Shown here piece after piece: positions 292 to 61,158 of a stretch of 64,000 bases of DNA. The notes under the pieces were generated by a model. That model was not told where the DNA came from, did not search any database, and worked only from the letters and a program-made list of their open reading frames with translations. Source of the DNA: Podarcis gaigeae (Eukaryota); NCBI GenBank assembly GCA_964106915.2, contig OZ066923.1. One strand, 5' to 3'. Within the stretch, counting starts at the first letter, position 1. Each line of letters opens with the position of its first letter. A program made the position numbers and the translations under genes.

Positions 292-518
292 CAGTGGTAC
301 TTTGGTTGTTGAACTTAATCTATTCCAGGAGTCCTTTCGACTCCCAGAACTGTTAAAAAACCAAGGCGTGGCTTCTGATGGGCTGCAGGAGCTTCCTGCA
401 CTCAATTGGAAGCTGCGCCGGACGTTCATCTTCCGAAAAAGGTTCACAAACCAGGTTTGCGGCATTCGGGAGCCGATTTGTTCAACAACAAAGGTGTTTG
501 ACTACCAAGGTACCACTG
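292..518. mobile_element. Tc1/mariner Tigger-like MITE
   Basis: TIRs CAGTGGTAC...GTACCACTG with TA on both sides (290-291, 519-520). Confidence 0.85.
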
Positions 519-705
519 TACAGTTTCCATATGATACTCCTGGACAGGGGCCCCTGACAGGCATCCTAAAAAGTGAATATGTTATGGATGCTTTCCCCAC
601 ATTGATGCTGCATTCTTTTGTGGAAATCAGGGCTCTAAAAGAAGGACCATGATTTACTTAATGATATGCTGCAGAGAATTCTCTTAACCAAGAAGAGAAA
701 AAGGC

Positions 706-871
706 TCAGGTTCCATAGCTTGTTAGGTAGTATGCAGAAGTTCCCAGGTTCAGTTCCTGGCATCCCTAGGTAGGGCAAGGAGAGACCTCTGTCTGAAACC
801 CTGAAGAGCTGCTACCAGTCAGAGTAGACCGTACTGGGCTAGATAAGCCAAAGGTCTGAGTCAGTACAGTG
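706..871 (+). mobile_element. Squam2-type tRNA-derived SINE, 5' part, interrupted by hAT; remainder at ~4450-4472
   Basis: ATGCAGAAGTTCCCAGGTTCAGTTCCTGGCATC...GCTAGATAAGCCAAAGGTCTGAGTCAGTA continues as TAAGGCAGCTTTC after the hAT right TSD. Confidence 0.7.
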
Positions 872-3800
872 CAGGGGTCTGCAACCTTTAAGACAAAAAG
901 AGCCACTTGGACCCGTTTCCGAAGAAAAACAACAACTGGGAGCCGCAAAAACATTGCAACATTTAAAACAAATATAACACTGTATATATTGTTTCTTGCC
1001 TTAATGCTATATATACAGGATCGTGCAGTCAGCTGTCAATCTCAAGAAAAAAGGACAAATTAATAGCTAATTAAAATATTTAATTTACAACCAGGTAACC
1101 AGGTTAATGGGACTTTTGCTCCTGAACCTCAGTGCTCAGTGTCTGCACATCAGGGCTGTAAGACGTCACCTTCATTTTCACACAGGCTTGCAAGCTGTCA
1201 TCTGTGAGGCGTGATCGATGTTTGTTTTTAATATAGTTCATGTTGGAGAAGACCTGCTCACATACATATGTGGAACCGAAGATCGACAGGACTCCAAATG
1301 CATACTTTTTCATGTTTATATAAGTGTTGGGGATGGCATTCCATGTTTCAAATACAAGTTTGTCCTGTTTGGGAAGGTTTTCAATATCACTCCATTTATG
1401 ATTCTGAGCCAGAATGGCCTTCTGATGGGCAACATCCTCAAGAGTAGCGGTCAAGCATTTGAACTTGGACACCCATATATCTTTGTCGGCTATATCGGCC
1501 AGTTCCAGCTCAAGATCAGGTTGACTTACACCTGGAAATGCAGTCATATTCAATAGGGATGGATCGATCGCCAGGGGAGTGACAGGGAAGGATAATGTGT
1601 TTTTTTCCTCTCTGAAACCACAGAATCGTTTCCCAAACGAACTTTGCATTGCGGTGATTGCAGACTTGAAATATTCCAAATTTATCGTATCATGACTTTG
1701 TTTGAACTCTCTCAAAGAGGGAAAGTGAGACAGTGTACCTCTCTGGAAATCTTTGACAAACACTGTCAACTTGCGCTCAAATGCCAAAACCTCCTCCAGC
1801 ATGTGCAGGGCTGTGCCTCCTTTCCCCTGAAGGGTTGTATTTAGCGTGTTTAGATGGGCTGTCATGTCTACCATAAAATGTAATTTTTCCAGCCACTCTG
1901 GCTGTTCCAGCTCAGCAAAGGTAAGCTCTTTGCTGGCCAGGAAGGTTTTTACTTCTTCCAAACATGTGACAAAGCTTTTTAGCACCTCGCCTCTGGACAA
2001 CCACCGGACCTTGTTGTGGAGCAGGAGGTCCGAATATGTGCTTTCCACCTCATCCAGTAGCAAACGAAACTGGCGGTGGTTTAAACCCTTTGCCATTATC
2101 TTATTAACAATCTGAATGACCACATCCATCACTTTTGTGCATTCGGGGGGAAATGTTTGAGCACACAATGCCTCTTGGTGCAGGATGCAATGAAATGACA
2201 GCAGCGTTCTACCCAGTGCCTTCTGCAGTAGAGCCACAAAGCCCTTCTGTGCTCCTCATGCTTGGTGCCCCATCAGTAGCCACTGAGACCAGGTGGTTGG
2301 TGTTTATTTTTTTAGCACTTAAAAAGTCCAGGACAGCCTTACAGATATCCTCACCCCTTGTTTGGTCTTTTAGTGGTATCAGCTCAATCAGTTCTTCCTG
2401 TGGCCCAAAAGAGTTCACATATCGGCAGAACAGTGCTATTTGTTCAATATCACCTTTATCTTTGGGCTCATCACAGGTGATGGAGTACACCACAGCTGAA
2501 TTAATGTCTTGAATTTGCTGTTTGCTAATGTTTTCTGCCATTTTTAGGGTTCTGTCTTTAACAGTCTTCGCAGACAGAGGCATGTCTTTGATTTTCTGCA
2601 CAATTTCATTCTTGTTTTTGAAGTCCATGTATAGATGTTCCGAAACCTTAATGAATGCTTCTTTTATATACTCTCCATCTGTGAACGGCTTCCCGTGCTT
2701 GACTATTTCCTGAGCGGCTACAAAACTAGCATACGTTGTGGAATTTGCAGACTTCACCCAATTCTTGAAATTATTTTTGCTCCTATCAACCTTCCTCATA
2801 AGTTCTGCAACGGCTTTTCGTCTCTCATCTCCATCTGGATATTTTTCAGCAAAGGCTGCGTGTTTATTCTGGAAATGTCTTGCAATATTTGACTTTTTGT
2901 TGTTTGCAAATTTCTCACCACATATTAAGCATACTGGTAAACCAGTCTTGTCAGTAGAGAATGCAAATGATTCTGTCCATGTATCATTAAACATTCTGTT
3001 TTCTTCAGAATTTTTTCTTTTCTTGCCTTTATCCATGGCTGGCCTACCGGGGGTCCAAAACAGGGACGTAATTAGAAATCAGAGGGCTCCATAGCAAAAT
3101 TTGCTATGCCCGATGTCAGGGAACTGACATCAGAGCGAGAGGCGAAGGGGAGGCTCCCAGATTATGCTGGCGAAAGACCCAGCACCAGGGGGAGAAGCAG
3201 CTCGGTAGAGGGGGAAGGAAATCAGCGCAACACCAGGGATAAAGGGGGGCAGATGGGGGAAGCGGAGAGAGAGCTCCGGGATTCTTCTCTGGACATCAGT
3301 GAGTAGAGCACAGGTCCTCCACTACCCACGCCCTCACAAATTCCACGCGACCGCGACTTGCTATGCCCAATAATCAATGCCCAAAATGCCATAGAAAATT
3401 AATCAGGGCCCCAGTGTACCATAAATCATAATCAGTGCCTGATGTAAATAATAATTAATAATGAGGGCCCAATGTCATCCTCGTCATTATAAAAATACCT
3501 TTTTTGACACTTTTTATTATTTATTTGTTTGACCCCTCAGAATTACTCCTCCTCATAGAAATAAACATTACATTAACAAGTTACCTTTTTTTGAGTGTGT
3601 GTTCTTCACTCCCCTTCAAAACAGTGACCAGTGTATATGCCCCCTTTCAATGCAGCCTGCTTACAAAGGCGGGACGACAAAGACCAGCAATAAGCTGTTG
3701 CATAACGTTCCCCAAGGAAAGCGTTAGCTATTCACCAAACTTTCCCCTGCTTAAGTTTAAAAAGGGGCTTCAAGCAACTAAAAAGGGGCTTCAGGCAACT

Positions 3801-4441
3801 AACTCCCACGTGGAATTGCCTATAGTAAGATGGCGGCCGCCTCAGAAGACCACATGGGCAGATAAGATGGCTGCTGGGGCGATCTCAGCAACAGCACAGC
3901 TGCTTCCGATGCTTTTAAAAGCAGCCGGCAAAGCAAGCGTTGGAGCGCCGAAGCCATCTCACCCCCACAAGGAGAATGCTGCGCATGTGACCAAATAGCG
4001 AGGACTTTGCTAGAGACAAGCCCCCGACGCTACCACAAGCCTCCCTCTCTTCCCGCCGCCCAGCCTCCCAAGAAAAAAAACCCCACTTCAAACGGTCACA
4101 AAGCACAAATTCCACGCGACCACGACTTGATCCGCCCACAACTTGATCCACCAGGCGCGCCGAGTCCTCCCCAGGAAAGGTAAAATGTGGCGATGAGCTT
4201 GCGTAGCGCGCTGGGCTCCCAGCAGCGAATCGACTTGGATAGGCAGCAAGCAATCCAAACGGAGAGGTTTGTGGCGCGATCAAGGCGCCCCCAGTAGATA
4301 AGGGAGTGATCCAATCATAAGCGGCTTTTTGCGTGTTTCCGCCCAGAAAATGCGCCTCCTCCCCTCGCCTCCGCCCCGGAGCCGCAGCAAAGGCGTTAAA
4401 GAGCCGCATGCGGCTCTGGAGCCGCAGGTTGCCGACCCCCG
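872..4441 (-). mobile_element. Full-length autonomous-type hAT DNA transposon (Charlie/Buster/SPIN-like clade), 3570 bp
   Basis: TIRs CAGGGGTCTGCAACCT (872-887) and revcomp CGGGGGTCGGCAACCT (4426-4441), 14/16 identical. Perfect 8-bp TSD GTACAGTG (864-871, 4442-4449). Subterminal GAGCCRC motifs. Encloses the transposase. Confidence 0.95.
1104..3036 (-). pseudogene. hAT transposase (GTF2IRD2/EPM2AIP1/SPIN-like), ~643 aa, single frameshift at ~2253-2256
   Basis: ORFs 2209-3036 and 1104-2237 join at ATDGAPSMR/AQKGFVALLQK. BED-like finger CLIC...RHFQNKH; DDE motifs CDEPKD, ATDGA and STYVCEQVFS; HCILH (CxxH); RWLSRG; C-terminal dimerisation motif KHRSRLTDDSL. Kozak GCCAGCCATGG. Confidence 0.92.
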
Positions 4442-5994
4442 GTACAGTGTAAGGCAGCTTTCTTACACTATGTTTCTGTGTAGTCCCCCTGCTTTTCACA
4501 CTGCTAGTTCCCCATCCCAGATTACTTCACTGCTTTCCTTAATAAATTCTGAAGTGAGCCAGCCAGCTCCTTGAGTCTGTAGTGCACATGTCCTCATATT
4601 AAATGATAATTGAGATTTTCCATAGAAGTTAAACTGTGAATGACAACATTCGTTAAAATTTCTTGCCGCTGAGCAACTTAGAAACGTCAGCACATGAAGT
4701 GATTAAGACATATTAATAATTAGGAAGATGAAGTACATTCACCTTCAGAAATGAAATGGGTGCTAAATTTAGTGGTATCAGCCATTTCTAGAAACTTGGC
4801 AATTATTACACTGTGGGTTGAAGTAACTGAGGTAGCCGAATAAGGGGAGTTTAATTGTGTCCTTTTCTGCTGTTCTCAGTGGGAGGAGCAATGATGTGTG
4901 TTGATTTCAGAGCAGCACATCCACTTTGAGGACTGAAGCATATAGCTGAAATGCTTCCTTGTCTGAATGGATTTCAGGGTATAATGTTAGCTCCTCTGGA
5001 ATCACACAGGAAATGTCTTGGATGTTTCCCTAAGCTTCTTTAAGGAGGCTAATTTTCTTTAGATGTTTAAAGGTTTAAAAAACCACAGTTTGTGTCATCT
5101 TCCTTTGAATCCAGGCAGAAATGGATTACCAGTGAGTCTTGTCTAGCAAATGGACTTGCAGTACCTGCAAATTAGTTGACATCCCTTCCTAGCACAGCAC
5201 AGTACAAACTTTAATTTTAGACTCCACCTGCCTACAGAGAAAGTAACAAAGCAATATAGCTGCAGATCAAATGCTTATCAGGAACCAGCAAACTTCATGT
5301 GTTGGATATCTTTCACTTGCTCTTTCATTTTTCTTTTCTTTTTTACATGTCATGTGCCCTTTGATTACCAACACAATACATCTGCATTTTTGTATTCTAC
5401 TATAAGATATGCCCTTAAACATTTTGCTTTAGGAGAAGTGGACACTTAAGCAATTTTAAGAGGTCATTGGAAAGTCAGAGTGCCCAAAGATCTCCCTTCA
5501 AGAAGTGGTGTATTATTTTTTGATTATAAAAATTATGGTGTTCAGCATCCCATATATTTCAGATTCTGGTGTAGTCTTGGTCCATAAAATGGCAGTGTAG
5601 TCAATTTCAATACAATAGTATGAGCAGGAGACAAAATGAATAATTCACCCTGGCCTCTTGCTTTCTGAGATAGCGGGAATGTTGAGAACAGTGTGGCAGC
5701 AATGTATTTAACCCCAGGCTCATGGGCACATGACTTGTCGTTGCTGACAAAATGCAACTTGACAATCAGCTACTGACATTTGTGCTGAGTTTGTCATCCA
5801 CTGCATTTCACCATTAAGTATATCCAACAACCCCCCCCAAAAAAACCTGAATTACATTTTCTGTTTTACAGGGTTGATGATGCAAAAGAGATCTGAACAA
5901 AGAATTCAGCCCAGCGACAGGCAGAATAGATCATTTATATTGCAGGTTAAACTCTCAGTTAATTAAGGGCTAAGTAGTAAGTGCATGTGAAACC

Positions 5995-30994: not shown

Positions 30995-32199
30995 AGCTTT
31001 GAAATGTTAAGTTTGCAAAGGCACCCGTAACCGAGTTACATACTATTGATTCCTGTGCTCTGTGCAGATGCCATTTTATGACACTTTAAACCCTCACACA
31101 CTTGGCTTCTGCAAGTTTAGCAGTGACAACCACATGTTATAATCACTTCTCCCAAACTGTTCCTCAGTCCAGCTGTTGAAAAGCCGTTCCAAAGATAGAC
31201 TCAAAAATCTTGTGTGGCAGGAGATAAAAATGTGAATTATTTTATTAATAGTTTTGACAAAAATGAGCATTTGGGATGAGCAATTCATTTGAAAAAGACT
31301 GAATGAATATATAGATATATATAAGAGGCTGAGCAGGCTAGGCTAGTTACTATTTCTTCTTTTAATCTGTTGTCAAATTTGTATCCCATCCTTCCTCCAA
31401 GCTGGTTGCCCCATCTTAACCTTGCAACAATCCCATTGGAGAATAAGTCAAGCAAGGATGTGAATCAAGGTTTCCATAGCTGATGAGCCCAGCAGTGTTG
31501 TTTGTATTTTCAGTGAGAAAGGAACAGTTGGCTGAACCTGACACTTATTGATTGAGTAGCTGTAGATAATCATAGACTCAAAAAGTGGAATATATTTGCA
31601 AGCTATTTATTTTAGTTCCCTGCTGTAATGCAATTCAGAATCCTGTGCAACTGGGAATCAATGCTATCCAGCTTTGAATTATGGGAATCTAACAGGTAGG
31701 GCCATTTAATTCTGTTGGCACTCAAGATCCCAAAATGACTACCTCTGCAGAATGAAACAGGTAAGCAGAATCAGGGGAAGAGCAGGTAGGTGGCTGCCAG
31801 CAGGCATTCCTGTTACCTCTTACTTACTAATCAGGGATTGAAAACTATTTCCTATAAGGGGCCATTATAGGCCACTGTTGGGGGGGGGGGAGTCATTCTG
31901 TGGCATCAGCCAATGTTGCGGGGGGGGGGGGAGCAGAGCCAAATGTATGTGGAGGTTGTAGCATTGCAGGATTAAGTAGTTCTTTCTCTCTCTTTTGTGC
32001 TCTGTTCCTGCCTCTGTACTACCTCATCTATGTGGGCTGCATGAAATTAAGACAAGGGCTGCAGGTTCCCCACCCCACAAAAGAGTTTTGAACGAGAAGA
32101 GTGGGCAACCTGCCCAGCCATGTTATGCTTTGATGGCCTCCCTGTCTGAAATTAGCATTTGTCAAGGAAAACCTATAGTCTTATTGCTGTGATCCTGTG

Positions 32200-32565
32200 T
32201 ATGGTGCTGGAGGAGACTCTTGAGAGTCCCATGGACTGCAAGAAGATCAAACCTCTCCATTCTTAAGGAAATCAGCCCTGAGTGCTCACTGGAAGGACAG
32301 ATCCTGAAGTGGAGACTCCAATACTTTGGCCACCTCATAAGAAGAGAAGATTCCCTGGAAAACACCCTGATGCTTGGAAAGATGGAGGGCACAAGGAGAA
32401 GGGGACGACAGAGGACGAGATGGTTGGATGGTGTTCTCGAATCTACCAGCATGAGTTTGACCAAACTGCAGGAAGCAGTGGAAGACAGGAGTGCCTGGTA
32501 TGCTCTGGTCCATGGGGTCACGCAGAGTCGGACACGACTAAACGACTAAACAACAACAACAACAA
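32200..32565 (+). mobile_element. Bov-B LINE 3' fragment
   Basis: Encodes LRVPWTARRSNLSILKEISPECSLEG...; (CAA)n tail. Confidence 0.93.
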
Positions 32566-39383: not shown

Positions 39384-39909
39384 ATAGAATAATAGAATTG
39401 GAAGGGACCCAACGGTCATCTAATCCAACCACCTACAATGCAGGAATCTCAGCTAAAGCATCCATGACAGATGGCCATCCAACCTCTGCTTAAAAACCTC
39501 CAAGTAAATAGAGTCCACAACCTCCTAAGGGAGAACGGCTCTTACTGTCAGAAAGTTTTTCTGTATGTCTAGTTGGACTCTCGTTTCCTGCAACTTGAAG
39601 ACATTGGTTCGAGTCCAACCTTCCAGAGCAGGAGAAAACAAGCTTGCTCCGTCCTCTATGTGACAGCCCTTCAGATATTTGAAGATGGCTATCATATCTC
39701 CCCTCAGTCTCCCTTTTCTCCAGGCTAAATATACCCAGCTCCTTCAACCATTCTTCATATGGCTTGGCTTCTAGACCCCTGATCATCCTAACTAGGGTTC
39801 CAGCTTGTCAACATCCTTTTAAAATTGTGATGCCCAGAACTGGACACAGTATTCCAGGTGTGGTCTGACTAAGGCAGAATAGAGTGGCACTATGACTTCC
39901 CTTGATCTG
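39384..39909 (-). mobile_element. CR1 LINE 3' fragment
   Basis: ORF 39490-39786 MIRGLEAKPYEEWLKELGIFSLEKR is the CR1 ORF2 C-terminal motif; ATAGAAT tail; [11 protein letters not shown]-like region upstream. Confidence 0.9.
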
Positions 39910-45494: not shown

Positions 45495-46249
45495 CAGTGG
45501 TACCTCGGGTTACATATGCTTCAGGTTACATATGTTTCAGGTTACAGATTCCGCTAACCCAGAAATAGTACCTCAGGTTTGTTGTTGTTTAGTCGTTTAG
45601 TCGTTTCCGACTCTTCGTGACCCCATGGACCAGAGCACGCCAGGCACTCCTTTCTTCCACTGCCTCCCGCAGTTTGGTCAGACTCATGTTTGTAGCTTCG
45701 AAGACACTATCCAACCATCTCGTCCTCTGTTGTCCCCTTCTCCTTGTGCCCTCCATCTTTCCCACCATCAGGGTCTTTTCCAGGGAGTCTTCTCTTCTCA
45801 TGAGGTAGCCAAAGTATTGGAGCCTCAGCTTCACGATCTGTCCTTCCAGTGAGCACTCAGGGCTGATTTCCTTAAGAATGGATCGGTTTGTTCTTCTTGC
45901 AGTCCATGGGACTCTCAAGAGTCTCCTCCAGCACCATAATTCAAAAGCATCAATTCTTCGACGATCTGCCTTCTTTATGGTCCAGCTCTCACTTCCATAC
46001 ATCACTACTGGGAAAACCATAGCTTTTACTATACGGACCTTTGTTGGCAAGGTGATGTCTCTACTTTTTAAGATGCTGTCTAACCTCAGGTTAAGAACTT
46101 TGCTTCAGGATGAGAACAGAAATCGTGCTCCGGCAATGTGGCAGCAGCAGGAGGCCCCATTAACTAAAGTGGTGCTTCAGGTTAAGAACAGTTTCAGGTT
46201 AAGAACGGACCTCTGGAACAAATTGAGTACATAACCAGAGGTACCACTG
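45495..46249 (+). mobile_element. Tigger-like MITE split by a Bov-B insertion
   Basis: TA-CAGTGGTACCTC...GAGGTACCACTG-TA; the two halves match the intact copy at 21606-21830. Confidence 0.88.
45580..46082 (-). mobile_element. Bov-B LINE 3' fragment nested in MITE
   Basis: Open 153-aa frame LPTKVRIVKAMVFPVVMYGSESWTIKKADRRRIDAFELWCWRR...; 10-bp TSD ACCTCAGGTT (45570-45579, 46083-46092). Confidence 0.95.
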
Positions 46250-56138: not shown

Positions 56139-56800
56139 TTTTATTATTTGTACTCCACCCATCTGACTGGGTTATACCAGCCACTCTGGGAGGCTTCCAG
56201 CAAAATATAAAAACACCATAAATCATAAAACATTAAAAACTTCCCATACAGGGCTGCCTTCAGATGTCTTCTAAAAGTCATATAGTTATTTATCTGTTTG
56301 ATATCTGATGAGGGACATTCTACAAGGTGGGCACCGCTACTGAGAAGGCCCTCAGCCTGGTACCTTGTAACTTTACTTCTAGAGCTAGATCTCAGTGTCT
56401 GGGCTGAATGATGGGAGTAGGCATGTTTCTTCAGGTATACAGGGCCGAGGCTGTTTAGGACAGTAAAGTTCAGCACCAACACTTCATATACTGGAAACCA
56501 ATGTAGATCTTTTAGAATCAGTGTTATATGGTTCCGGCAGCCATTTCCAGAAACCAGTCTAGCTGCCACATTCTGGATTTGTTGTAGTTTCCAAGTCACC
56601 TTCAAAGGTAGCCCCATGTAGAGCGCACTGTAGTAGTCCAAGCGGGAAATAACCAGGGCATGTTCCATTTTGGCAAAACTAGGCAAGTAGGGTCTCAGCT
56701 GGTGTGCCAGATGGAGCTGGTAGACAGCTGCCCTGGACACTGTGCCTCCATGGACAGCTGTGAGTCCAAAATGGCTCCCAAGCTGTGCACCTGGTCCTTT
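56139..56800 (-). mobile_element. L2 LINE 3' fragment
   Basis: Translates HALVISRLDYYSALYMGLP...LQQIQNVAARLV...HITLILKDLHWFPV...FRRHLKAALY, the L2 ORF2 C-terminal motifs; (AAT)-type tail. Confidence 0.88.
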
Positions 56801-57039
56801 AGGGCAGTTTGTATAAACTGGCAAAGGTGTGCCAAGATATAGTTTTAGAACATGGCCCGTAATACCATGCAAACTAGTGCCTTTGAATGTGTGCAAAATA
56901 ACCCCCCTAATCAAGCAGCTTCAACCTGTCTCTGAAGAGGTTGGATTAAAGTAACACTTTCAATTTCAAGACAGACTTGAGCTCTGGCACCTAATATTGC
57001 ACAAACTTAGCCTTGGATTGTTTATCTAATTCAACCTTT

Positions 57040-57150: not shown

Positions 57151-58325
57151 TGTTGATGAAGGCTGATGTTATTTTTCTGGCTATTTCCTGATTTGTTGGA
57201 CGTTCAGTATAAAACACACGCAGGTCAATTAGATATATCAGCACTGTGTGAAGCCTTTCGTGTTCCTCACTATCCTCCTTTGATGACATGGAAAACTCAA
57301 TAACCTTTATTAAGTAATCTGAAGGTGTACATTAAACCACTAGTTCTACAAGGTACAAAACTTTCATTTTTATCTGTTGCAAATATTATACCTGGACTAC
57401 TTCATTATATCCACTGTGCTTAGATGCTAGATTAATTCACACAAATTATATTACATGCACTAAATTGTTAAGCTTAAATAGATTGGGGTTTTTCCCCTCC
57501 TTTTTTGAATATCTTAGATTTCCTCTCTGAATATTCCAAATTGCTTTTTAATGGATTTCTTCCTATATGTGCTTTTGTATTGAGAAATTGGCAGGGCACA
57601 TTGCATGAAATTAAATTTGACTCAGAGTTTGATGGTATGGAAGAAATTGGTGCGGAAATGAAGACAACATTTTGAAAGTCTAATATGCAGCCAGCTGGCT
57701 GTACTAAAAATGTTGTATTTTCTAGATAGCTCTTAATGCTTTCACACCAAAACAGAAAGAGGACAAGAGACCACATAAATAAGGCAGCTAAGAAAAATAT
57801 GTCATTTTCCTAAGTATCCAGTGGCAAAAACTGGGCATGGGAATTAATTTGCTGATAGGAATGCTAGTTCCTTTGAAATGTAACAAGGGTGTTTTAGCAG
57901 CTTAATGATTAATCAAATCATTTATACTGAACATGATGTTTCCCCAACATTTTTTTCTTAATTTATGTTCAATGTTGTAATGACAACCACACAAATTGTC
58001 ATTAATGTCATAATCTGTTTCTTATTTCAATGGTTTTGAACTTACGTTTCTGAAGACTGTGTAGTACTATGTCCATAGCACTTGATTTTTGTACACTCAC
58101 TCTGTCACTGAAAATTATTGTGAGAAGTCAGAGCAGGGTGATAAGCGGCTGCTGCTATATCCACTACAAATTAGTTAAGAATATATTCAGAATATTGATC
58201 TGATGGCTGGACCTCTGCTTTGCTTCTTCCTCTGTCGTTCAGGCAGCAGCTTTTGGGCTCCATTGAGGGCCAAATTTGGCAGGTGGGTAGGAAGGGGTTT
58301 CAGGCGGCGCAAAGCCCTGCTATAA

Positions 58326-59076
58326 CAGAAAGTGAGGAGTAATTAAAGAACCTTTTAATGAGGGTGAAAGAAGAGAGCGCAAAATATGGTTTGAAGCTCA
58401 ACATCAAAAAAACGAAGATCATGGCAACTGGTCCCATCACCTCCTGGCAAATAGAAGAGGAGGAAATGGAAGCAGTGAGAGATTTTACCTTCTTGGGCTC
58501 CATAATCACTGCAGATGGTGACAGCAGCCACGAAATTAAAAGACGTCTGCTTCTTGGGAGAAAAGCAATGAGAAACCTAGACAGCATCCTAAAAAGCAGA
58601 GACATCACCTTGCCGACAAAGGTCCGTATAGTTAAAGCTATGGTTTCCCCAGTAGTGATGTATGGAAGTGAGAGCTGGACCATAAAGAAGGCTGATTGCT
58701 GAAGAATTGATGCTTTTGAATTATGGTGCTGGAGGAGACTCTTGAGAGTCCCATGGACTGCAGGAAGATCAAACCTATCCATTCTGAAGGAAATCAGCCC
58801 TGAGTGCTCACTGGAAGGACAGATCCTGAAGCTGAGGCTCCAATACTTTGGCCACCTCATGAGAAGAGAAGACTCCCTGGAAAAGACCCTGATGTTGGGA
58901 AAGATGGAGGGCACAAGGAGAAGGGGACGACAGAGGATGAGATGGATGGACAGTGTTCGCGAAGCTAACAGCATGAGTTTGGCCAAACTGCGGGAGGCAG
59001 TGGAAGACAGAAGTGCCTGGCATGCTCTGGTCCATGGGGTCACGAAGAGTCAGAAACGACTAAACAACAACAACAA
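58326..59076 (+). mobile_element. Bov-B LINE 3' fragment (~750 bp, longest in window)
   Basis: RVKEESAKYGLKLNIKKTKIM...YGSESWTIKKADC*...LRVPWTA; in-frame stops; (CAA)n tail. Confidence 0.95.
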
Positions 59077-61158
59077 ACAAAGAGAAGAGGGGGGCTCTCT
59101 TCTGCAGCCCAGAAATGTGAGATTCTTTGCCCTTGTAGATGCTTTGGGAAGAGGGTTTCCCCAATTTTAGGAAAAGGTTAACAGGAGCCTGACCACTTCA
59201 TGACAATACTTTAAATAGTTGAAAATTCAGAAGGAGAGAAAGTGCGGGGAAGAGTTACTGTAACTACAAAAGGGAGCAGTTTTCACCAGCAGGCTTCAAT
59301 GAAAATTCTCCCTGTATAACTTCGAGATTGTAATCTGTAGTGGCAGCAGATCCCATTCTTCTCAGACCTGTGTATCACCCTACCCTGCCACTTTTAGAAG
59401 TGTTGAAAGCTGGATAGTAGCAAGGGAAAATGTTAAGGAAGATGTATTCAGGAATTAAGCTAAAATGCAGAACAACAGTGCTTTTCAGAACAGTTTAAAA
59501 CATGTGATTACAAAGGGGCAAAGCCAAATAATGCTAATATATTTTGAGACCACAATGCATTGGGAATAGCATTCACATCAAGTGCTTGCTAAACATTTTA
59601 TTCATAGCAGGTTGTGTAACATTCTAATGGCAGCCAGTGAAAAACTAAGCATTTCTTAAGCCAACCACGTTGTAGTTGCATCATGACGGACTGTTTGTGG
59701 TCATTTCTAAAACAAACGATATATATATATATGTGCACAATATTTGTATGTGCAGTTAAAGAAAGGAACCGGGGGGGATGGCTGTGGGAGAAGTGATTAG
59801 GTACACATGAAATGCTTCCCTTAATTTAAATATTGGAAATGGCTTAGAGAAATCAACCCAGATGGATCCTACTACAGTAACAAGACTTATTTTCTGTAGC
59901 CTTTGGAAAGGATTTTGGGCTCTGAATGCATAGCAGCTGCCAAAGCCTCAATTTGTCCATGCCTGGAAGAGTTGAATCTCTGCTTCCACAGCCCCTTTCC
60001 TGCCTTCAGCAACAATGACTGCCTGCAATTGTCATACCTGACCTATTTTCCAGTAATTTCCCCAAAGGTAACAAACATCTTGCCCAACATCTTTGCCTAT
60101 GGAAGGAACAACTACACAGATCAGACCTCTTTTTTAAGGACAAGTATGTATAGGCCAGTGCATATGTGCACACACCAATTATATTGGGTCAGAGAATTCA
60201 AAATTCTTAATAGCATTCTCTTTCTCTGCATGTTTAGAATGACCTATTTTAAAATCACACCATGATATTGAGTGATTCTATTAACACATGCACTAAAATA
60301 CTTTAAATAGTCATTTTTCTTGAAAGAGCAGAACGTTATGCTTATCATCAATTTATTTCCATTTAAAATTTATATTTCCATCCAATTTTCAGAAAAAGTC
60401 AATGTGACTTTCAACCCCAAACACAACAACAGTAACAAAATATATTGTTACAGGCCACCCCATTCTCTGAGTGGCGAAAGATTTCAGGGTTCTTGGTGCT
60501 TAATCAGGATTTGTGTTTTCTCTGGAAGTGAGGCACAGTGGAGACTATGCTGTCTTCATAATATATAGTTTTATTTGCACATATATGCAACCTTGAGTCT
60601 ATAGTGGAGGAATTTCCAGCACTCACATCTCAAGAGGGACTTGTTTCCTACAGAAGCACAGCATTGGATTCAAAGGTTGCCAAACAGCAAACTCTGTGTC
60701 TCTTTTCCAGTTTATCCCAGCTAGCCCACCAGAACTTCTGCCAGGTCCACTTCTCCCCAGTTTTTCAAACCTTTTGCAAGATGCCACAATTTTCCTTCAG
60801 CCTATATCAGGGATAGCCAACTTAGAAGAGACTGCAATCTACGCACACAATTATAAACTGGTAGTGATCTACCCATTTGTGGAACGCCCCATTCATAGAG
60901 GGGTTCAGGTACTTTTTCAGGGAATCAGGGCAAAGGAATAAATTTAAAAAGTCGCTTGCCAAGTGATCACTAATGAAACAGTCAGCCTCACAACGAGAGC
61001 TCCATATAGCGATCTAGAGGGTGGGGCAAGGGGAGGGGCCGGGTGGAGGAGCCAGCGATTGACCGCGATCTACCAAAACCTCCCAGGCATCAACCAGTAG
61101 ATCATGATTGACCTGTTGGACATCCCTGGCCTATATCACCAAAGCTGAAAGCTTAAAC

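Follow-up and report, generated by a model that had tools for sequence, protein, structure and literature searches.

Buster- and Charlie-type hAT transposons are the closest described systems to the element reported here, which occupies positions 872–4441 of a 64,000-nucleotide stretch (the window) of contig OZ066923.1 from the lizard Podarcis gaigeae (GCA_964106915.2). Their signature is an 8 bp target-site duplication (TSD) of the form nnnTAnnn (PMC3499496), and 7–22 intact young copies per genome is the profile of the Busters active in human cells (PMC12637253). Arthropods and ray-finned fish supplied the natural Busters assayed in PMC12637253, whereas the present host is a reptile, and the likeness to TcBuster and AnBuster is one of description. 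In Anolis, hAT-HT2_AC is reported as extremely young, with 0.14% pairwise divergence, and families below 0.5% are termed 'certainly active', such cases of lizard activity resting on low divergence (PMC3014272). The sole known active mammalian DNA transposon is described as piggyBat (PMC11707139).

In our reading the window element is a probably dead member of a Buster/Charlie-type hAT family, of which this genome holds 18 complete insertions with unbroken frames; the family is likely shared through recent transfer with salamander, frog and bat lineages and was very recently mobile here. The probability of this reading is put at roughly 0.86. By itself the window copy is ordinary, and the informative object is the family, whose value lies in being a naturally intact and possibly still active reptile transposon.

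The family resembles TcBuster and other Busters in its 8 bp nnnTAnnn TSD, terminal inverted repeats (TIRs) 14–16 bp long, as well as a transposase of 597–677 amino acids with BED finger and DDE residues (PMC3499496, PMC12637253). The TSD is perfect in 34/37 elements and in 15/15 short ones, a central TA is found at positions 4–5 in 29 of those 34, and the TIRs are 16 bp; the protein has the DDE, CxxH and conserved W residues, the dimerisation domain, a Hermes-like fold (predicted on intact copy L004) and an N-terminal finger of BED type, which scores over cut-off as Spin-doc and only at E=0.061, below cut-off, as zf-BED. With hAT-HT1/2/3_AC and SPIN_AC of Anolis it shares a lizard host, 14–16 bp TIRs and a NTCTAGAN-type 8 bp TSD, and with the Charlie-related hATs of that lizard a pattern of few autonomous and many non-autonomous copies and lateral transfer among tetrapods (PMC3014272). 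It differs from each listed Anolis family by 3–4 of 16 TIR positions (Table 1 of PMC3014272), in length (3.57–5.2 kb versus 2.2–3.0 kb), in its 18 complete insertions as against 1–13 open reading frames per family, and in its transfer partners, namely axolotl, Discoglossus, Pelobates and Pipistrellus. The TIR mismatches and the longer elements tell against its being SPIN_AC or hAT-HT1/2/3_AC as these are listed in PMC3014272. hobo_AC of Anolis is another hAT with members that carry fragments of long interspersed nuclear elements (LINEs; CR1 and Bov-B) inside, but it falls within the hobo clade, measures 9–15 kb and, in the parts of PMC3014272 examined, comes without transfer evidence or minisatellite expansion. 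Hermes (PDB 4d1q, 8edg) has the same fold (E=3e-10) and asymmetric subterminal repeats (PMC10368747), but only 14–16% identity, and is a member of the Ac family rather than a Buster.

No publication on the family was found in the literature, of which Repbase, Dfam, Guan 2022, Novick 2010 and most supplements were not covered and may contain it. Paulat et al. (PMC10162687), in the passages covered, report no hAT common to bats and lizards or amphibians, and two end motifs had no match in one partial supplement of that paper. The family appears to be a new addition to the known hATs of Buster/Charlie type, among which SPIN and hAT-HT1-3 are counted.

Structure of the element and its transposase

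The element is a 3,570 bp hAT transposon flanked on both sides by a perfect 8 bp TSD, and its transposase is encoded on the minus strand from an ATG at 3036 to a stop at 1104, with frame 1 open to 2209 and frame 2 open from 2255 to 1104. Its features are as follows.

864–871, plus strand: TSD copy 1, GTACAGTG; run X7, where the site is empty, has the 8-mer once
872–887, plus: TIR at the 3' (right) end of the element; the genome holds 1,062 exact matches to its 33-nucleotide (nt) extension
900–946, plus: two GAGCCRC subterminal motifs (900–906, 940–946), putative transposase binding sites
1104–2255, minus: C-terminal half of the transposase, residues 262–644 and stop, including the hAT dimerisation domain; substitutions R355S and R538H
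1259–1257, minus: E594, C-terminal half
2006–2001, minus: R345W346, C-terminal half
2189–2178, minus: C284xxH287, C-terminal half
2254–2258, minus: frameshift, a private 2 bp deletion in a short GA-rich run
2257–3036, minus: N-terminal half of the transposase, residues 1–260; carries I9N, A183V, A187T and S191P
2274–2272, minus: D255, N-terminal half
2472–2470, minus: D189, N-terminal half
2931–2860, minus: zinc finger C36/C39...H59, N-terminal half
3037–4441, minus: 5' non-coding region of 1,405 bp, strongly rearranged between copies
3044–3070, minus: likely splice acceptor (from sequence context and RNA reads), a pyrimidine tract with AG at 3045–3044, 7 nt before the ATG
4353–4377, minus: 13 bp G-rich minisatellite, a two-unit seed here, with expanded arrays in young-tier copies
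4379–4425, minus: four GAGCCGC/GCGGCTC subterminal motifs including a quasi-palindrome, with a putative binding role
4426–4441, minus: TIR at the 5' (left) end, beginning CGGGGG; its 30-nt extension has 104 exact genome matches
4442–4449, plus: TSD copy 2, the same 8-mer as at 864–871

The two TIRs pair at 14 of their 16 positions, and nearly all full copies of the element have these same two end sequences, indicating that the two mismatches are a feature of the family and not decay. Reversed controls of the left 30-mer and right 33-mer gave no genome match, and no further TIR-like match (up to 3 mismatches) was found elsewhere in the window. The subterminal repeats are asymmetric, with four on the left and two on the right, and the 5' non-coding region contains a 35-nt direct repeat (3335–3369/4104–4138) and a 21-nt tandem pair (3758–3799). 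The TSD of the window copy itself reads CA at positions 4–5 on the element strand.

Pfam placed two domains over cut-off, the Spin-doc zinc finger PF18658 at E=1.1e-6 and, at E=2.1e-6, the hAT dimerisation domain; DUF4371 and zf-BED (PF02892) fell below it. D189, D255, E594, C284xxH287 and R345W346 are all present and conserved in 54–60 of 60 homologs, and finger residues C36, C39 and H59 are kept in 59–60 of the 60. A single-sequence search of the transposase against PDB gave no match; only profile and fold searches returned Hermes, the C-terminal profile at E=9e-4 and the predicted fold of L004 (predicted local distance difference test score 85.7) with Hermes structures as all top 10 matches (E 3e-10 to 2e-8).

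By analogy with Hermes, the transposase would bind the 16 bp ends and the subterminal repeats, with the zinc finger likely reading the repeats, and D189, D255 and E594 would excise the element by way of hairpinned flanks. Insertion would then be into nnnTAnnn sites with duplication of 8 bp, the duplication itself being observed. GAGCCRC had been considered as the Hermes BED site and was dropped, as PMC10368747 moves that site from GTGGC to AAG(T/C).

An intact family in the same genome

A 701-nt core probe was searched against the P. gaigeae genome and gave 38 matches, 32 of which are near full length at 96–100% identity, the window copy among them. Twenty-two of the 31 other near-full copies have an unbroken frame of 644 or 646 amino acids; seven are broken and two were left unscored, the exact start motif being absent. 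Three of the unbroken copies were removed: one whose finger is altered, one whose E594 motif is changed and whose TSD is imperfect, and one whose left end is missing. With a segmental duplicate counted once, 18 independent insertions are left in which the frame is unbroken, the two ends and every motif are present and the TSD is perfect. The earlier note, made from the letters of the window alone, had named the window copy a candidate for resurrection, a proposal overtaken by these 22 ready frames; as intact copies exist in the same genome, repair of the window copy is pointless.

Internally deleted derivatives with the same exact ends were also seen, at 1,097 bp (four) and about 1,600 bp (four), and would likely be mobilised in trans by the family. 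All 15 of the right-end matches sampled are short elements with perfect TSDs that start CAGGGG and have 82–97% identity to the window left end; with such left ends, the 1,062 right-end matches cannot all descend from precisely this master, and the short elements are likely, by sequence, to be sister subfamilies.

One copy, L041 (G000:C8:41902587-41911500), is 5,945 bp long and has an insertion of about 3.2 kb within the transposase frame. L053/L054 and L060/L061 are segmental duplicates, the former pair being entered as one in the counts, and L113/L114 (C19) and L116/L117 (C17) are inverted segmental duplications with 100% identity over 6.4 kb and 99.6% over 9.5 kb respectively, which may be true duplications or artefacts of the assembly. 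The depth of contigs over the frame, relative to single-copy flank, was about 40–70 (X1), 28–36 (X3), 5–13 (X4) and 3–4 (X7), which hints at species-level, perhaps individual-level, copy differences; depth is not copy number and was not used as evidence.

Two tiers of insertions and a recent wave

Alignment of the copies separated an older tier of six insertions, including the window copy, with a mean pairwise difference of 1.23%, from a young, star-like tier of 22 aligned copies with a mean of 0.32%, in which 16/231 pairs differ by no more than 0.1%. Copies L034 and L035 lie at different sites with different TSDs and have no difference over the 2,158 nt. The family was thus mobile in this genome very recently; the copy number and divergence that the earlier note had left to be measured are these, and its view of a young Buster/Charlie-type hAT is borne out by the low divergence of the copies together with the empty orthologous sites described below.

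Between the tiers there are two non-synonymous and eight synonymous changes, as against 50 and 29 in individual copies (Fisher p=0.015) and 29 and 16 at the young-tier tips. This is the pattern expected of a selected master and neutrally ageing insertions, as far as substitution counts can tell.

All 23 young-tier copies examined have 8–69 units of the 13 bp repeat (up to 1 mismatch) from left-end position 65, whereas the older copies checked (the window copy, L047, L057 and L059) have two. The repeat is G-rich and CpG-bearing, and its length differs among the young copies L031–L062, even between L034 and L035; because length differs between copies that are identical over the coding part, the minisatellite changes faster than point mutation. 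A piece of about 170 bp from a LINE tail, ending in ATTCTATG repeats and recurring outside the family, lies inside 19/23 young copies; we take this ATTCTATG-ending piece to be CR1. One such fragment is L033:3251-3440, and diverged relatives (74–95%) occur elsewhere, at window 39384–39526 and L112:986-1135. Ten young copies (L031, L036-38, L043-45, L048-50) have 6 nt duplicated in frame, four residues past catalytic E594; being common to all ten, this variant has spread, in cis or in trans. Alleles 1617 and 2734 were considered as markers of the young tier and were ruled out, an amphibian-labelled RNA run having them too.

In the course of events proposed, the window copy would have gained its frameshift and conserved-site substitutions neutrally after insertion, and a sister copy would then have founded the younger wave with the expanded 13 bp minisatellite, mostly with the LINE-tail fragment.

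The insertion at the window was dated by comparison with related organisms. One contig of run X7 joins window position 863 straight to 4442, an empty site with one target copy, and the site is also empty in run X4, with 31 letters between 863 and 4442. The flanks of these X7 and X4 contigs differ from the window at 29/1013 (2.9%) and 31/954 (3.2%) positions respectively, and near-private change of the window copy is 0.42%. In the best-matching organism, right-flank contigs of two samples enter the element for 27–28 letters without a difference, which fits a filled site. On these sequence differences, the window insertion would be roughly 0.3 as old as the splits from the X7 and X4 organisms, and the young tier roughly 0.1. 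With a substitution rate of 1–3e-9 per site per year, the insertion would be about 1.5–4 million years (My) old and the young tier about 0.5–1.6 My, both being upper bounds given CpG decay.

Evidence for horizontal transfer

Distribution across animals was judged from annotated proteins, among 15 of 46 cluster members listed. Amino acid identity of an intact copy is 96–97% with four axolotl proteins encoded on chromosome-scale contigs and 95–97% with Podarcis and Lacerta; it is 93–96% with Discoglossus (86% for one further model), 93–95% with Pelobates, 93% with the bat Pipistrellus nathusii and 92% with Phrynocephalus. Tiliqua, Varanus, vipers and a gecko reach only 81–84%. Related transposases occur in vertebrates and invertebrates alike, with 592 proteins at E<=1e-50.

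In a tree of 17 rows (LG+G4), the clade uniting the lizard, amphibian and bat proteins had support of 100/100, with the copies of this genome grouping with Podarcis proteins (98/91); the lizard–axolotl path is about 0.02–0.03 changes per site, and an earlier quick tree of 47 rows agrees. Approximately unbiased (AU) tests reject squamate monophyly (p=1.8e-98) and amniote monophyly (p=1.8e-79). At the DNA level, contigs of an RNA run labelled 'amphibian metagenome' differ from the family at 76/2,059 nt across the frame (3.7%; 96.3% identity), the low difference extends into non-coding 3' sequence, and several amino acid states are those of the axolotl or Discoglossus proteins. Even if all 76 differences were synonymous, the proportion of synonymous differences would be at most about 0.19 (410 synonymous sites).

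Horizontal transfer among lizard, salamander, frog and bat lineages is well supported by these comparisons, and entry into the lacertid lineage was likely by recent horizontal transfer; the candidacy for transfer raised by the earlier note is upheld by the incongruent tree and the AU tests. Such near-contemporary hosts (lizard, axolotl, frogs and bat) would allow the transfers to be dated and ordered and a vector to be sought.

In the wider family, two other tight clades that cross classes have support of 100 in the quick tree: one joins Erpetoichthys and Leptobrachium to Myotis and Pipistrellus, the other Acipenser to Ranitomeya and Saccopteryx. In the 17-row tree, Sphaerodactylus is placed with Prochilodus (100/99). 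Together these groupings suggest, from tree shape, further transfers.

The window copy

At about 2256–2258, 28/28 other aligned copies are longer by two bases, which are also present in all four RNA runs compared, so the deletion is private to the window copy. The 2 bp loss that the earlier note had placed near 2253–2256 is accordingly confirmed, as are its sequence facts of a hAT with both TIRs, a perfect 8 bp TSD and a split frame, and its BED-like finger, DDE triad, CxxH and RW motifs, the finger being a Spin-doc one and the motifs being kept in homologs. Its claim that the element is 'one indel from functional' is not supported, as three further changes lie at conserved residues: A187T (A in 58/60 homologs), S191P (S in 59/60; P also in one other copy) and R355S (R in 54/60), of which the first two flank catalytic D189. 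Nine substitutions of the window copy, these three among them, occur in at most one other of the 28 aligned copies, and 5/28 of these have frame-breaking indels of their own, one set being common to two copies. The window copy is likely dead.

Expression, probable splice acceptor and fusions

Low-depth coverage of the frame comes from RNA runs of two 2026 studies, whose reads lack amphibian-type alleles, and strand bias in run X23, from another or an unknown organism, is consistent with sense transcription. In run X21, 21 RNA reads leave the element exactly at the AG at 3045–3044. A 30-nt loose-end motif from these reads (consensus agreement 0.69) had no genome match with 2 mismatches, and the upstream exon was not found. 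KRAB fusions of 82–83% relatives in Tiliqua and Crotalus join at a point matching this acceptor; the KRAB or SCAN-KRAB fusions P0003 (Tiliqua) and P0005/P0006 (Crotalus) join just before R-P-T-M. These fusions resemble the splice-capture route by which host–transposase fusions arise, as set out by Cosby et al. (bioRxiv 10.1101/2020.05.07.082677). It is possible that the RNA joins at the acceptor mark a young host–transposase fusion in the organism of X21/X23, and, with a built-in acceptor that matches the join point of squamate KRAB fusions, the family may show such fusions at birth.

Other RNA reads in X21 and X23 pass over 2738–2944, an in-frame skip of 207 nt that takes out the zinc finger. 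A splice between 2737 and 2945 was rejected, as there are no canonical ends on either strand; a deleted genomic copy is more likely.

Alternative explanations

Vertical inheritance from an early tetrapod, with the likeness of lizard and amphibian proteins kept by purifying selection or reflecting old paralogous subfamilies, could draw on the 592 related proteins, among which paralogy can scramble a tree, and on the purifying selection that acts between the tiers. The amniote–amphibian split lies about 350 My back, a span over which synonymous sites would be saturated, and this sits badly with a lizard–axolotl path of 0.02–0.03 per site and a DNA difference of 3.7% that includes non-coding 3' sequence; the other squamates sampled, moreover, have relatives at 81–84% only. 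We therefore consider vertical descent very improbable and recent transfer the better account. Still less credence can be given to a GTF2IRD2/ZBED5-type gene domesticated by the host, despite homologs automatically named 'GTF2IRD2-like' and the KRAB/SCAN fusions of relatives in skink and rattlesnake: copies are dispersed by the dozen, with TIRs and with TSDs that differ, and the frame is broken here. The empty orthologous site in related organisms refutes it. As for the frameshift, an assembly error in a frame that is continuous in the animal (the conserved-site substitutions would still be there) is made conceivable by the short GA-rich run in which the deletion sits and by the absence of the window allele at 2254–2263 from every contig, though collapsed contigs lose rare variants. 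We find this unlikely, and the deletion very probably real on the sequence evidence, because frame-breaking indels of their own occur in 5/28 other copies, two of which share one set and so inherited it, and because nine other near-private substitutions are found here, as in other old-tier copies.

A family that was recently mobile and is now extinct or silenced here, with frames too young to have decayed, is compatible with the explanation we favour and is about an even bet: the young tips are near neutral (29 non-synonymous versus 16 synonymous), 0.32% mean divergence comes with few identical pairs, and the filled junction is found in both samples of the best-matching organism. Set against it are the one substitution-free pair, the 16 pairs at or below 0.1%, and RNA reads of lizard-type transposase in two studies together with the sense bias of X23 (another or unknown organism). 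The family may still be active in a reptile genome, to judge from its sequences. The fullest version of our reading is that an undescribed Buster-type element moved within the last few My between lizards (a wall-lizard lineage and an agamid), amphibians (a Mexican salamander and Old World frogs) and a bat, and is still transposing here from intact copies, the latest wave stemming from a variant with a hypervariable G-rich left-end minisatellite; we advance it tentatively, as less likely than not.

Several points weigh against the reading adopted here. The 27–28-letter junctions in the best-matching organism fall short of the 31-letter rule for bridging. For transfer, synonymous divergence is bounded only from above, the amphibian DNA is known from difference tables of runs labelled metagenome, the first tree (47 rows) was a quick search and the later one has 17 rows (LG+G4), and the inner branches of the clade are short and partly below 80 in support. 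The DNA contigs are collapsed and hold majority alleles only, which limits what they say of the frameshift. The 6-nt duplication after E594 is in 9/18 complete insertions. With regard to present activity, only 1/231 young pairs is identical, and the star shape of the tree, at 0.32% mean divergence, fits a burst that may have ended.

Few DNA transposons have been shown to be active in amniotes, and the 18 complete insertions can be assayed without reconstruction. Natural variants are at hand for comparison of end function, with two versus 8–69 minisatellite units and 644 versus 646 amino acids. If the family is indeed still transposing, it would offer a ready-made gene-transfer tool for reptiles and a live test of end architecture after transfer between hosts.

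Other features of the window and genome

Contig depth and loose ends place high-copy short repeats to the left of the element, at window 300–520 and 720–850. A Pfam scan of 283 stop-to-stop frames of at least 58 amino acids returned one weak match, below cut-off and of no use. Fragments of retrotransposon open reading frames, without a Pfam match, lie at window 32162–32545, 45589–46104, 58300–59170 and 56144–56920, the first three of which are presumably Bov-B/RTE-like. Elsewhere in the genome, 53 beta-keratin (PF02422) matches over cut-off are clustered on one contig, which marks the host as a sauropsid, since these proteins are not known from amphibians; the grouping of its copies with Podarcis proteins makes a lacertid likely. 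Window 5871–5944, which has no Pfam match, has a pyrimidine tract with AG on one side and GT on the other and may be a host exon; if it is, the element sits in or near a gene.

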